A stretch of 26,507 bases of DNA from a virus (lineage: Duplodnaviria > Heunggongvirae > Uroviricota > Caudoviricetes). The stretch lies in the IMG/VR virus record IMGVR_UViG_3300011772_000022, positions 80,259 through 106,765 of that record; one strand, 5' to 3'. Of this stretch, positions 22,701 through 26,507 are shown piece by piece. Position 1 is the first letter of the stretch. Each line of letters opens with the position of its first letter. The position numbers and the translations under genes are program-made. The notes below the pieces were generated by a model. The model saw only the letters and a program-made list of their open reading frames with translations. It did no database searches and had not been told where the DNA came from.

Positions 22701-23300
22701 TTATTTACCTCCGCCAAACAGTTGACTTAAAATGCCACCTGAACTTGGATTTGCTCCTTGTGCTTCTCCTGCTGCTCTAGCCGGATTACCCTTCACTTTG
22801 ATGCTGATTTCGTCTTGAGGTCCAGTCATTAAGTCTTTAAAGTCCTTCATTAGTTCCATCATTAGTTTCATTTCCTTCGATAAGTTGGCATCGATGTATC
22901 CACCCTCTGATTGTTCAATGAATCGACCAAACATAACCCGTTCCCCTTGCATGTTCAACATCATCTTTGTTAATTCTAAAAGGTCTTCCGGCTTCTCAAT
23001 GTTAACTGCGTTCTGGAAATAACAAGATGCGTTCTCCTTATAGTGTGGACATTTATCGATTAAATAACATTGGTCACATAACTTAGGCATTCCCAGTTGT
23101 TGCCCCATTACCGCCGGAGTATTAGGAGCCTGTTTTGCAGGTGCTCTTACTTCAGCCTGCACCAGTTCTGTCGTATTCTCTTCTCGGATATCCTTTTCTA
23201 ATTCCTTAATCTCAGTCCATTCAGCGGGAACGGAATTTTCACGTTTCTTATCACGTTCCGCCTCTTCTTTTGCTTCTTTATCTATCCAATCCATAGACAT
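22701..23300 (-). CDS. Cys4 plus helical-domain protein, candidate terminase small subunit
   Basis: 199 aa from ATG 23300; CDQC-x5-C-x8-C, helical core, C-terminal ISIKVKG strand and GGILSQLFGG tail; function inferred only. Confidence 0.45.
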   Translation of the reverse strand: MSMDWIDKEAKEEAERDKKRENSVPAEWTEIKELEKDIREENTTELVQAEVRAPAKQAPNTPAVMGQQLGMPKLCDQCYLIDKCPHYKENASCYFQNAVNIEKPEDLLELTKMMLNMQGERVMFGRFIEQSEGGYIDANLSKEMKLMMELMKDFKDLMTGPQDEISIKVKGNPARAAGEAQGANPSSGGILSQLFGGGK

Positions 23301-23307
23301 ACTAGCC

Positions 23308-23391
23308 ACCTCCAATCTTTAGTTTATTTAGCCTTTCTTTTGTTAGTTAAGAATCTTAACCTCATTCAGGTAAAGAATCTTTACCTCATAG
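23308..23391 (-). promoter_or_regulatory. Tandem-palindrome module, copy B
   Basis: GTTAAGAATCTTAAC (23346-23360), GTAAAGAATCTTTAC (23370-23384), leader ACCTCCAATCTTTAGTTT (23308-23325). Confidence 0.75.
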
Positions 23392-23655: not shown

Positions 23656-23872
23656 CCTTTCCATCTCCTGAATTAAATAACTCTTCAAACATAGCTAGAT
23701 GTGTAACCATCTTTACATCTTCACCTTGCTTTTTGATTAATATTTTGTAAATGACTGCATTATGGAATGCCTGCCATACCATTAACCGTAAAGAGCGTAA
23801 ATCCTTAGCGAAAGCAGCGAACACATGATGTGACTGAGGTATCTCAATTACCATCCAGTAAGAGCTAGTCAT
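23648..23872 (-). CDS. Hypothetical protein
   Basis: 74 aa, start overlaps upstream stop. Confidence 0.5.
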   Translation of the reverse strand: MTSSYWMVIEIPQSHHVFAAFAKDLRSLRLMVWQAFHNAVIYKILIKKQGEDVKMVTHLAMFEELFNSGDGKDE

Positions 23873-24080
23873 TTTTGATATCCTTCAGTGCTCTGAACCG
23901 TGGTACGATTTCACCGTCATGGTCTAAATGTCCGAAGAATCGTTCAGATGGTTGGTCATAGATTTGACCGTCAGAATCGTCCAAGCAAGTATAAATTGCT
24001 CGTTTGATACCTGTTTCCGTGTCTAGTGCGATGTGTAAAACTCGATAGCGTTTCTTATTTCCGTAATGTACATAAATCAT
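23865..24080 (-). CDS. DUF1653-like protein
   Basis: YVHYGNKKRYRVLHIALDTET...AIY...QPSERFFG...RF pattern; start uncertain, ATG 24080 avoids overlap with dpdA. Confidence 0.6.
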   Translation of the reverse strand: MIYVHYGNKKRYRVLHIALDTETGIKRAIYTCLDDSDGQIYDQPSERFFGHLDHDGEIVPRFRALKDIKND

Positions 24081-24090
24081 TGGGTCTATC

Positions 24091-25905
24091 TTACTCAACA
24101 AAATCATCTCCCCACTCGAATGTTTTCTCAAATTGTCCTCTTTCATATGAATCAGGATTGTGTGGGCGGTGGCGCCAATACTCAACCTGCTTCTTATAAA
24201 GTCCATTACCATCTTGTTCATTGTTTAGCCATTCAGCAAATTTAATCCACTGCTTTAAACTAAATTGGTTGACGGCTTCTGCTTTATCTCCGATGAAATC
24301 ATCCCAGTTTACTCCTGCATCCATTACAATTCGTTTCCATCTTGCTCGATGGTGTTTACCGAATTTGTCATAGGAGCGGAGGCGGTGTCCATCAAACCAG
24401 AATGACATCCCGTGCTTTGCTCCGGATAACCATGTTGTGGAATCGACCGAGTAGAACGGGAAACGTTTCATCATTTCAATATTTGTGATGGCAACACGAT
24501 TGTTACTCACCTTGCGGTGGGATAGGTCGTTTCGGTTCCGCCTATCTCCCTATATTTCTATAGGGGTCAGACTGTCGCATGACTCGTTCCATGATGTTCG
24601 TCAAAGAGTTGCGTATATAGTTTGGTTTGCCCACTTTGTTCCCGAAGAAGTTCATCAATACCTAAGTCTGCTTTCGTCATATTCAATCGACCAACCCGTA
24701 ACATATCACACATGTTCGTAATTACTCGACGTTCTCTGATTTCCTCTTCTGTATAAGGGTTCATATTAGTACGTTTGTCTGCTCTAGCATTCATTTCCTT
24801 TACCATATCGTAAATATTCGCCCACATATCAAAATCTCGGCTCTTTTTAGCCTGTAACGGGTATTTAGTAAAGATATGATGAATTACCTCACAATGACGA
24901 ATTCCGTCATAATGAAGTGTTACTTGAGCAGTCACATCGTTCTTACGTTTTCTATGATAGATTGCTCCTTCACCCATTCCGAATGAATCCAACCAATCTT
25001 TGATATCGTAAAGAATTTGTGCATCATCTTCCCGTACCTGTATGCCCCATCTAAAGGAGAAAGCAGTTCGTTTGTATTTCTTTTTTGTTTCCCGGAACAG
25101 TGGTCTAGCGATGAAATAGCTCTCACCATCTGCAAACCCTGCTAAGTACCACCCTTTTTGCTCATCAGTTAGTTCACCAAACATAATTCCCACCCCTAGT
25201 TCGTTATAGTAATTCCTATAACCAATTATAAATGGTGTTGGTAAACTATGTCAACGAGTCCTTCCTCGCTCAGTCGTTCACGGTCCTCAAAAGGTTCCGC
25301 CCTGTTGCCCTCGTCTTTACGTTAGGGGTTCCAAGTCAATCAGAGGAAGTTTTACACGGTCTAGCCATTAAACCGTGAACCCTTGTACCATATTTCGCTG
25401 CAATTCTCATCCGGCTCCCAATGTATCGTGAAAGGTAATTCGTTGATACATCTGGAACCGAACCGAATGCCACATACGGATAGTTCTTACATAAGTATTC
25501 GATATAGGCTCTCGTATCCCGTCTATGAATAACGGGAAGGAGGTTGTCCAGTTTCAAATCAAGCAGCTTCTCTCTGTTTTTCGTCTTCTGATACATATTA
25601 CCGACGTCGAGTTCGGCGCAGATATGAAATTGGTCTGCCATATACTTCAGGAATTGATAGTATTCCTTGAGGTATATCGATAGCTCATGCTCGATATCCT
25701 TTGCAGTTCGCCCATCCTTTACCATTTGCTCTCTAAAAGAGAAGGCTCCTGAATCCAAGAAGACCCGTGGAAAGGATTTAATAACCTGTGCTACCTTCTT
25801 ATCACTTTTATGTCTCATATAATAGAAGGTTGCCAGTGCATTCTCTACTTCATTTTCTTTTAGAATCCGAGTCATTGATTCGGCTCCTGCGAAGAACGTA
25901 TGCAA
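24091..25905 (-). CDS. dpdA: DpdA-like/TGT-fold guanine transglycosylase, spliced: exon 1 25905-25371, exon 2 24494-24091 (312 aa)
   Basis: AAGGAGG then TTG start; FLDSGAFS, ELDV, LPVIH, YVAFG in exon 1; splicing gives RVHGFAITNIEMMKRFPFYSVDSTTWLSG; adjacent to queC-like gene. Confidence 0.75.
24567..25184 (-). CDS. Intron-encoded single-motif LAGLIDADG homing endonuclease
   Basis: WYLAGFADGESYF motif and FTKYPLQAKKSRDFDMW segment; in P8 loop; ATG 25184 behind AGGGGTG. Confidence 0.88.
   Translation of the reverse strand: MFGELTDEQKGWYLAGFADGESYFIARPLFRETKKKYKRTAFSFRWGIQVREDDAQILYDIKDWLDSFGMGEGAIYHRKRKNDVTAQVTLHYDGIRHCEVIHHIFTKYPLQAKKSRDFDMWANIYDMVKEMNARADKRTNMNPYTEEEIRERRVITNMCDMLRVGRLNMTKADLGIDELLREQSGQTKLYTQLFDEHHGTSHATV
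25225..25254 (-). promoter_or_regulatory. Intron-internal sigmaA promoter for the endonuclease
   Basis: TTGACA (25254-25249), 18 nt, TATAAT (25230-25225). Confidence 0.75.
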
Positions 25906-25919
25906 GGCATCTTCCTCCT

Positions 25920-26504
25920 TTACAATTTCCCTGCTTTTTTGAAAGCATCAATAATTTCTTGTCCTCGTTTACCCGGATATTGCCCTAATCTAGCTCGACG
26001 AAGGTAATCCTTTGCTAATCTCGTTTCAAGTGGAGGTAGTTCATACTCTTCCTTGATATCATTCAAGTAAAAAGCAATGAATCTTCTGAAGCAGGCTCCA
26101 CAATTTCCACAAGGTTTCTTATCTCTCCCTGCATCATAACAAGAATGAGTCGCTAGTAAACCTGCAATTGGTAATCCTTGCTCTTTATACCATTTTACCA
26201 TATCCACTTTGGTCATCGTCCAAAAAGGTGTATCTACCTTGACCTCTCGGCAATTCAACTCGGAAAGAAGTTCTGACATGCGTAAGTAACCAGTGAAGGA
26301 ACGGTCTGGTAAATCTGTCTCACCTTGTTGGGTAATTAACCACACCCTGTCAGCGCCCCACATTGCCCCTACATGAGCCAGAAGAGAATTTCGTAATGGA
26401 ATATGTGCATTGTCCTCTTCCCATCGTCCTAAGGAAAGTGTGGAGTCCAGAATGACATGTTTATCGTCCATAAATTCCGTTGTACGGTGGATTGCATCAA
26501 TTTC
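25920..26504 (-). CDS. queC: QueC-like 7-cyano-7-deazaguanine synthase, N-terminus missing from window
   Basis: HIPLRNSLLA, TPFWTMTKVDMV, SCY...PCGNCGACFRR zinc motif; SGGxDS PP-loop not in window. Confidence 0.8.
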   Translation of the reverse strand, partial: EIDAIHRTTEFMDDKHVILDSTLSLGRWEEDNAHIPLRNSLLAHVGAMWGADRVWLITQQGETDLPDRSFTGYLRMSELLSELNCREVKVDTPFWTMTKVDMVKWYKEQGLPIAGLLATHSCYDAGRDKKPCGNCGACFRRFIAFYLNDIKEEYELPPLETRLAKDYLRRARLGQYPGKRGQEIIDAFKKAGKL

Positions 26505-26507
26505 TTA

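Follow-up and report, generated by a model that had tools for sequence, protein, structure and literature searches.

A putative mobile group I intron with a LAGLIDADG endonuclease gene in the dpdA-like DNA-modification gene of a phage

Results

A Gene Split Between Two Reading Frames

The DNA analyzed in this study (the window) is a stretch of 26,507 nt that makes up the final 26.5 kb of a 106,765-bp IMG/VR virus contig (IMGVR_UViG_3300011772_000022). Toward its end, three open reading frames (ORFs) lie consecutively on the minus strand: one running from a TTG at 25905 to a stop at 25338–25336, a 205-amino acid (aa) ORF at 25184–24567 that belongs to the LAGLIDADG homing endonuclease family, and one at 24510–24091. 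The outer two carry the halves of a gene resembling dpdA, and the gene queC lies directly upstream; the dpdA-like gene, the segment dividing it, the endonuclease ORF, and queC are on the minus strand throughout. The dividing segment, 25370–24495, is very probably a mobile group I intron within the dpdA-like gene, a reading to which its anatomy, the restoration of the frame, covariation, presence/absence polymorphism, and the family membership of its ORF all point.

Exon 1 (25371–25905, minus strand) would start with the TTG at 25905, preceded by AAAGGAGGA, and comprises 178 codons plus the first base of a Phe codon, so that it ends ...CAC GGT T at 25371, the predicted 5′ splice site. The intron (24495–25370, minus strand) is 876 nt long and closes with a G at 24495, the predicted 3′ splice site, after which exon 2 (24091–24494, minus strand) opens TT GCC ATC at 24494 and completes the Phe codon with its final two bases, followed by 133 codons and a stop. 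Removal of 25370–24495 joins CAC GGT T to TT GCC ATC in an open frame of 312 aa; the predicted ligated-exon junction is ...CACGGTT-TTGCCATC..., and the spliced protein would read ...TRVHGF|AITNIEMMKRFPFYSVDSTTW.... A first-pass annotation, made from the letters of this DNA, had proposed that joining CAC GGT T to TT GCC restores VHGF, and the 312-aa frame, in register with the uninterrupted homologues described below, bears this out.

The two halves match one protein family end to end. Residues 1–178 of exon 1 aligned with positions 10–189 of the PHROG 887 profile, “queuine tRNA-ribosyltransferase” (E = 4.8e-24), and exon 2, read from 24492, continued this match at positions 192–283 (E = 2e-11). 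A search of a collection of 5.8 billion proteins with exon 1 recovered both uninterrupted and truncated homologues, and exon 1 was 68–77% identical to those numbered P0002–P0011. Exon 2 was colinear with the relatives in tblastn, both exons being intact and 68–85% identical to their homologues. Six homologues of 304–320 aa, with 68–74% identity to exon 1, are uninterrupted, and all six read ...(V/I/F)HGFA(I/L)T(D/N/Q)IE... across the junction; the spliced ...VHGF|AITNIE... is colinear with them without insertion or deletion. The H-G at the insertion site was invariant among the homologues. Of 18 homologues recovered from the protein collection, at least 5 are cut off at the junction; P0002, P0007, P0010, and P0011 terminate at ...HG, and in P0002 and P0010 this is followed by nearly the same 11-residue read-through as in the window. 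When exon 1 was compared by tblastn with 50,697 phage records, no relatives were found, and neither a related-locus search with exon 1 nor a DNA pattern search for the 3′ domain of the intron returned a match in viral contigs.

Without splicing, the exon 1 frame meets a stop after 11 intron codons, and the ORF starting with GTG at 24510 spans all of exon 2. Both features would also be expected if an endonuclease cassette had been inserted without any splicing, and the dpdA halves were translated separately, exon 2 from GTG 24510, to assemble as a two-piece enzyme. Two-piece enzymes of this sort have been described for certain phage genes that are divided by free-standing endonuclease genes. 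However, there is no evident Shine–Dalgarno sequence before GTG 24510, which itself lies inside a helix of the intron (P9.2), and the structural evidence presented next stands against this explanation as well. An intein or a group II intron was also considered and rejected, as the insert has stops in the host frame and shows the features of neither.

Structure and Covariation of the Intron RNA

The P1 hairpin (25355–25377, minus strand) is formed between the exon 1 end CACGGTT (25377–25371) and the guide sequence GACCGTG (25361–25355), with the U25371·G25361 pair at the splice site. The first seven bases of exon 2 (24494–24488) face the P1 loop (25368–25362) as P10, 6 of 7 positions being paired. 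Both splice sites, P1, and P10 can be read directly from the sequence, as the first-pass annotation had claimed for the splice sites and core pairings. Alternative boundaries fared worse: a 3′ splice site right after P9 (after ...GGGAG) is in frame and adds 17 aa, but it leaves no P10 and the added segment is absent from all uninterrupted homologues, while shifting both splice sites by one base gives HGV rather than the conserved HGF and loses the U·G pair.

Covariation at P1 was evaluated over seven alleles. All 49 of 49 cells were paired, and 0 of 500 shuffles attained the observed pairing or covariation, whereas only 18–47% of cells were paired in slid controls. Two synonymous exon positions vary among the seven alleles, and the guide sequence tracks both each time; the wobble base of the Gly codon is paired with its counterpart in the guide as C-G, G-C, U-A, and A-U, while the U·G pair is invariant. 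That the guide follows synonymous exon changes would be inexplicable without P1 pairing, and this covariation is the strongest single test for a group I intron.

The 5′ half of the core (25253–25349, minus strand) runs from P3 to the 5′ strand of P8, and its helices from P3 to P6 were obtained both by RNAalifold and in a minimum free energy (MFE) fold. From six related introns, RNAalifold predicted, unprompted and with compensatory changes, P3 (25349–43/25267–61), P4 (25337–32/25304–299), P5 (25327–24/25311–08), P6 (25298–97/25283–82), and P6a (25294–92/25287–85). P7 (25275–71/24574–70) shows a compensatory double change, being GACUG/CAGUC here vs. GACUA/UAGUC in the introns at loci L010, L014, L025, and L026. 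P8 (25260–53/24588–81) was also found in the MFE fold. The 3′ strand of P8 (24588–81), the joining segment J8/7 (24580–75), and the 3′ strand of P7 (24574–70) were read from the sequence as one block (24570–24588, minus strand). In the 3′ domain (24495–24565, minus strand), P9 with a GAAA loop (24565–59/24554–48) and P9.1 (24546–41/24526–21) were likewise predicted by RNAalifold with compensatory changes, and P9.2 with a GCAA loop (24519–16/24511–08) was located by alignment with the tail of the L014 intron; the terminal G24495 ends the domain. The MFE fold of an ORF-deleted construct reproduced P1, P3–P6, P8, P9, and P9.1. The helix order, P3-P4-P5-P6 followed by P7-P3′-P8-P7′-P9, is canonical and includes the P3/P7 pseudoknot.

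Identity of the Interrupted Gene

The fold of the interrupted gene product was assessed on P0003, an uninterrupted homologue with 74% identity, since the spliced protein itself has no reference. P0003 matched PHROG 887 with an E-value of 1.6e-43, and its AlphaFold2 model had a predicted local distance difference test (pLDDT) score of 81.2. Foldseek alone gave a weak best match to 1iq8 (E = 2.3e-4) among generic TIM barrels, which was resolved by VIA-align: the top 50 matches were all tRNA-guanine transglycosylases (TGTs), with Z-scores of 17.6–16.6 over 254–276 aligned residues and a root-mean-square deviation of ~4 Å. Phage “queuine tRNA-ribosyltransferase” entries were among the BFVD matches. 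A search of PDB sequences with the DpdA profile returned spurious designed-repeat matches only. The Asp of FLDSGAF and the Asp of (S/C)(V/A/C)DS(T/A) were invariant in 10 homologues and, by motif resemblance, may equate to the TGT catalytic residues. The intron interrupts the catalytic barrel at a point 17 residues ahead of the (C/V)DS aspartate, which is invariant.

Relatives carry the genes for QueD, DUF1599, QueE, FolE, QueC, and DpdA in one row. Because of the TGT fold, the conserved motifs, and this neighborhood of preQ0 genes, the gene is taken to encode a DpdA-family DNA transglycosylase, presumably active on DNA; together with queD, queE, and queC, it is predicted to put a 7-deazaguanine base into the phage DNA. 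The dpdA host gene named in the first-pass annotation is thus upheld as a DpdA-like gene of TGT fold next to queC.

A separate Cys-rich ORF of 204 aa (22701–23315, minus strand) matched the C-terminal third of PHROG 887 (positions 334–472, E = 1.3e-20), with three small ORFs between it and the intron-split gene. An ORF of about 200 aa occupies the same position in relatives, for example L021:7408–8010, the correspondence being judged by position. The Cys-rich product may represent a zinc-binding domain that serves as a partner of DpdA and has a gene to itself.

Relation to Recognized Group I Introns

At the same codon, locus L014 has an ORF-less insert of 326 nt that was recognized by the Rfam model Intron_gpI with 87.7 bits (E = 1.8e-21). 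In P1 and in the P9-P9.1-P9.2 tail it can be aligned with the window intron, and its core is larger. The introns of L025 and L026 gave partial Rfam matches of 27.6–40.2 bits. In megablast, the 5′ core of the window intron was 81–90% identical over 47–84 nt to introns of Lactococcus phage Tuc2009 and Staphylococcus phage SEP9, the former annotated as group I and located in the major head gene, the latter scoring 91.5 bits with Rfam. Positions 19–66 of the intron (the P3–P5 region, ~48 nt) were also 85% identical to an intron carried by this genome's own DNA polymerase gene.

That second intron (G000:C1:17992–18249, minus strand; L004:1356–1613) is a 258-nt, ORF-less group I intron with an Rfam score of 80.7 bits, and it divides a family-A DNA polymerase (DNA polymerase I) gene, leaving ORFs of 493 and 247 aa. 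Inserts with identical P3/P4 and the same J8/7 and P7′ were also found in non-dpdA genes of other viral contigs (L016:6342–6560, L017:10160–10425, and L018–L020), that of L016 looking like a complete ORF-less intron.

Several observations weigh against the reading of a group I intron in a dpdA-like gene. Intron_gpI found no match in the whole window at the gathering threshold, in 24300–25600 at E ≤ 10, or in the 5′ half searched alone; the matches reported on the window were chance ones to small nucleolar RNAs and internal ribosome entry sites. The core variant is atypical, having no P2 and only AGC between P7 and P3′; its P4 is short, with an A·G mismatch that never varies, and P7 and P8 were paired by hand. 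The ORF-less inserts of L016 and L017 went undetected by Rfam at E ≤ 0.01. As to the host gene, searches of Pfam TGT, NCBIfam, and PDB sequences gave no TGT match, even with the homologues included, and its DpdA identity rests on the PHROG profile, the fold, and the gene context. A score above the 50-bit cut-off of RF00028 is a detection aid rather than a defining property of the class, and a 618-nt ORF sits in the P8 loop (L8) of the window intron. Since the L016 and L017 inserts share its P3/P4 sequence and likewise escape Rfam, the core of the window type is an atypical variant, and since inserts sharing it were undetected at E ≤ 0.01, this variant seems to be under-represented in RF00028. 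The Infernal group I model, suggested by the first-pass annotation as a check, failed to detect the window intron while detecting the ORF-less intron at the same site in L014.

On balance, the group I intron proposed at 24495–25370 stands: P1 with its U·G pair, P10, the terminal G, compensatory changes from P3 to P9.2, and Rfam-positive homologues including L014 all favor it. For the insertion of an endonuclease cassette without splicing, the lack of an Rfam intron in the window is an argument, but every group I hallmark is present, the guide co-varies with synonymous exon changes, and a recognized ORF-less intron occupies the same site in L014, which makes a two-piece enzyme extremely improbable.

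The LAGLIDADG ORF in the P8 Loop

The endonuclease ORF (24567–25184, minus strand) starts with ATG at 25184, preceded by the Shine–Dalgarno sequence GGGGTGGG at 25196–89. It occupies the P8 loop, and its final codons overlap P8′, J8/7, and P7′. The protein matched Pfam LAGLIDADG_1 (PF00961) with 48.4 bits against a cut-off of 23.1 (E = 1.9e-12), confirming the single-motif LAGLIDADG in L8 seen in the first-pass annotation. Upstream of the ORF, also in L8, lies a predicted promoter-like site, TTGACA-18-TATAAT (25225–25254, minus strand), the only 12/12 match to a sigma-70-type consensus within 23800–26507; L015, L009, and L010 have a conserved TTGACA-N17-TATAAT in the corresponding position, and the site is probably the endonuclease gene’s own promoter.

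Matches to solved structures in the PDB covered one domain only (aa ~10–133), corresponding either to one half of double-motif enzymes or to the homodimeric I-MsoI, to which residues 11–151 align; the C-terminal ~70 aa (~135–205) had no match. The motif is L-A-G-F-A-D-G-E-S, and GFADGES (G16–S22) was invariant in seven homologues of 43–100% identity with intact ORFs. A homodimer model scored 0.72, compared with 0.00 for the best of three controls; among proteins of solved structure, 21 of 30 pairs and 0 of 23 single chains attained the mark that the model reached. Its runs agreed in ≥87% of contacts, the partner pLDDT was ≥82, and the interface lay on the LAGLIDADG helix. The endonuclease most likely acts as a homodimer, as modeled; the model shows likeness to known dimers rather than binding, and may reflect resemblance to solved dimers.

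Some LAGLIDADG proteins are known to have maturase activity, including one of a bacterial 23S intron (PMC3984707), and it is conceivable that the intron is spliced only with its own LAGLIDADG protein as maturase, so that DpdA production would hinge on whether the ORF inside the intron is expressed, instead of resulting from constitutive self-splicing. The reduced core, with no P2 and a short P4, and the overlap of the 3′ end of the ORF with P8′, J8/7, and P7′ would fit such a dependence, but the ORF-less intron of L014 implies that protein-free splicing is possible at this site, though the L014 core is larger, and we regard the maturase explanation as unlikely.

States of the Insertion Codon Among Relatives

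An intron with a complete LAGLIDADG ORF was found at the same codon in the window and in L010–L012. In L007–L009, the intron and LAGLIDADG are present and the endonuclease ORF is interrupted by the contig end; L015 shows the intron's 5′ part followed by a truncated downstream ORF, and the contig of L013 ends within the intron. L025 and L026 carry intron and LAGLIDADG as well, in DpdA genes that adjoin glycosyltransferase genes, and there DpdA is only 41–43% identical over exon 1 and the LAGLIDADG protein 44–50%. An intron without an endonuclease gene lies in the homologous DpdA gene of L014, and a search for intronless alleles, as the first-pass annotation had advised, yielded L021, L023, and L024. 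A full intron, an ORF-less intron, and an empty site, that is, all three states of the homing cycle, are represented at one codon.

L012 has a second LAGLIDADG ORF, of 209 aa (L012:2246–2875), between queC and dpdA, besides the intron-borne one. Two generalizations about the site were examined and discarded. The rule that intronless alleles have GGC at the Gly codon and intron-bearing ones do not is broken by L025 and L026, which carry the intron with GGC. A pseudo-palindrome at the homing site, ATGGC-TTT-GCCAT, is present in L021 and was inconsistent across alleles.

The Phage and the Neighboring Genes

The window proteins include the major head, portal, and large terminase proteins. Since the large terminase resembles that of Bacillus phage BCD7 (45.5% identity), the virus is taken to be a large tailed phage, its host probably belonging to the Bacillota.

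The window contains the C-terminal part of queC (25920–26507, minus strand), encoding 7-cyano-7-deazaguanine synthase (Pfam QueC, E = 1e-13; TIGR00364). The contig ends overlap by ~98 nt (window 26410–26507 vs. G000:C1:1–98), from which the record, labeled linear and 70% complete in IMG/VR, is judged to be circularly closed or terminally redundant. Because of this overlap, queC is intact across the junction, its N-terminus with SGGLDS lying beyond it, and an in-frame TAA at 26507–26505 is an assembly-end artifact, the opposite contig end reading CAA. Just past the junction, the same genome carries queD and a QueE-type radical SAM gene, queC, queD, and queE all being intact. No GTP cyclohydrolase I gene (folE, PF01227) was matched in the whole genome, while folE lies between queE and queC in every related cluster examined; presumably, the phage relies on the GTP cyclohydrolase I of its host.

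The folE result, so unlike the relatives, could be taken with the atypical, Rfam-undetected core and its weak P4 to mean that dpdA has become a pseudogene in this phage, with the intron persisting as a decaying relic defective in splicing. Yet the exons are intact at 68–85% identity to homologues; pairing of P1, P7, P9, and P9.1 is kept through double changes; the endonuclease has an undamaged ORF in which the catalytic residues of the motif are invariant; and queC, queD, and queE are all preserved, so that decay is very improbable.

On the other side of the gene, a DUF1653 ORF (23865–24221, minus strand), if started at its first ATG, shares ~130 nt with the end of dpdA exon 2. Its Pfam match starts at residue 49, and the true start is therefore probably further downstream.

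Discussion

From established group I intron and LAGLIDADG biology, the following course can be proposed for the intron in this dpdA-like gene. The dpdA transcript would fold into a ribozyme, and an external guanosine would attack at the U25371·G25361 pair presented by P1. P10 and the terminal G24495 would then position exon 2, and ligation of the exons would allow the 312-aa DpdA to be translated. Without splicing, translation would stop 11 codons into the intron, leaving the catalytic barrel in two pieces. As the gene is split inside the barrel, 17 residues before the (C/V)DS aspartate, the unspliced message could not yield an active enzyme, and it can fairly be inferred, as the first-pass annotation had stated, that DNA modification depends on splicing. 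The dimeric LAGLIDADG enzyme would cut the intronless dpdA of co-infecting relatives near ...GG(N)T|TTGCC..., and repair from an intron-bearing genome would copy the intron in.

More speculatively, the endonuclease could act in competition between phages, cutting the intronless anti-restriction gene of a rival and thus spreading the intron while disabling or converting the rival’s counter-defense, with cleavage either confined to newly replicated DNA that is still unmodified or carried out by an enzyme adapted to the modified base. This proposal is doubtful at present; in both cases, homing would be linked to the timing of DNA hypermodification.

Elements of the same kind are the mobile introns of Bacillota phages, such as those of Tuc2009 (major head gene, with an HNH ORF) and SEP9 (endolysin gene) and those of Twort-like, SPO1-like, and Bastillevirinae phages. 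The intron described here shares with them a related core, the 81–90% identity falling in the P3–P6 region, as well as P1 with its U·G pair, P10, the terminal G, an endonuclease ORF in a peripheral loop, and the occurrence of alleles with and without the intron. It differs from them in its host, a dpdA-like gene for DNA modification rather than one for structure, lysis, nucleotide metabolism, or a polymerase, in encoding a LAGLIDADG rather than an HNH or GIY-YIG enzyme, and in a core that has neither P2 nor hairpins between P7 and P3′ and is missed by RF00028. A group I intron of a phage that likewise bears a LAGLIDADG ORF in one of its loops is found in a Bastillevirinae (Nitunavirus) DNA polymerase gene (PMC11878797); its ORF belongs to the LAGLIDADG_2 family, whereas that of the present intron is LAGLIDADG_1 in dpdA.

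The predicted endonuclease resembles homodimers of the I-CreI/I-MsoI type in its single domain, the acidic motif residue, the predicted symmetric dimer through the LAGLIDADG helix, and its coding within a group I intron. In contrast to them, it has low identity to the solved enzymes, an extra C-terminus of ~70 aa, a phage rather than an organellar origin, and a cleavage activity that is predicted. The host gene product resembles the phage DpdA proteins (DpdA1–4 and bDpdA; Hutinet 2019, PMC6884629; Cui 2023, PMC10516641) in its TGT-type TIM barrel, the LDSG and (C/V)DS motifs, and the accompanying preQ0-pathway genes; unlike them, it gives no Pfam TGT or NCBIfam match, the Cys-rich part matching the C-terminal third of PHROG 887 is encoded separately, and it is interrupted by an intron, a feature unmentioned in the deazaguanine literature searched.

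The first-pass annotation had called both the host gene and the enzyme unusual, which holds in part. Phage introns mostly carry GIY-YIG, HNH, PD-(D/E)xK, or EDxHD enzymes (PMC3984707), so that LAGLIDADG is uncommon, but it has already been recorded in the Bastillevirinae polymerase intron (PMC11878797). As to the host, no paper pairing DpdA with group I introns was found in a search outside which most subscription journals lay, nor was any pairing queuine tRNA-ribosyltransferase with phage introns. The main papers on phage 7-deazaguanines do not mention group I introns, and the co-mention of DpdA and “homing endonuclease” that was examined names the endonuclease only as a BLAST match for an unrelated gene. 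In the searchable literature, dpdA is an unreported host gene, an absence that is not proof of novelty. Phage introns are, however, regularly discovered in further host genes.

Automatic annotation renders the gene as two fragments of 189 and 139 aa without a family name, and because it appears as two unnamed fragments, surveys of 7-deazaguanine modification based on DpdA would miss or miscount such phages. A DNA-hypermodification gene very probably joins the phage genes colonized by group I introns. The three states of the site, found across DpdAs down to 41% identity, offer a natural series for study of the homing cycle. Since the host gene would replace guanines in the phage DNA, the endonuclease would have to work on 7-deazaguanine DNA, which raises the question of whether a LAGLIDADG enzyme can cut DNA modified by its own host gene.

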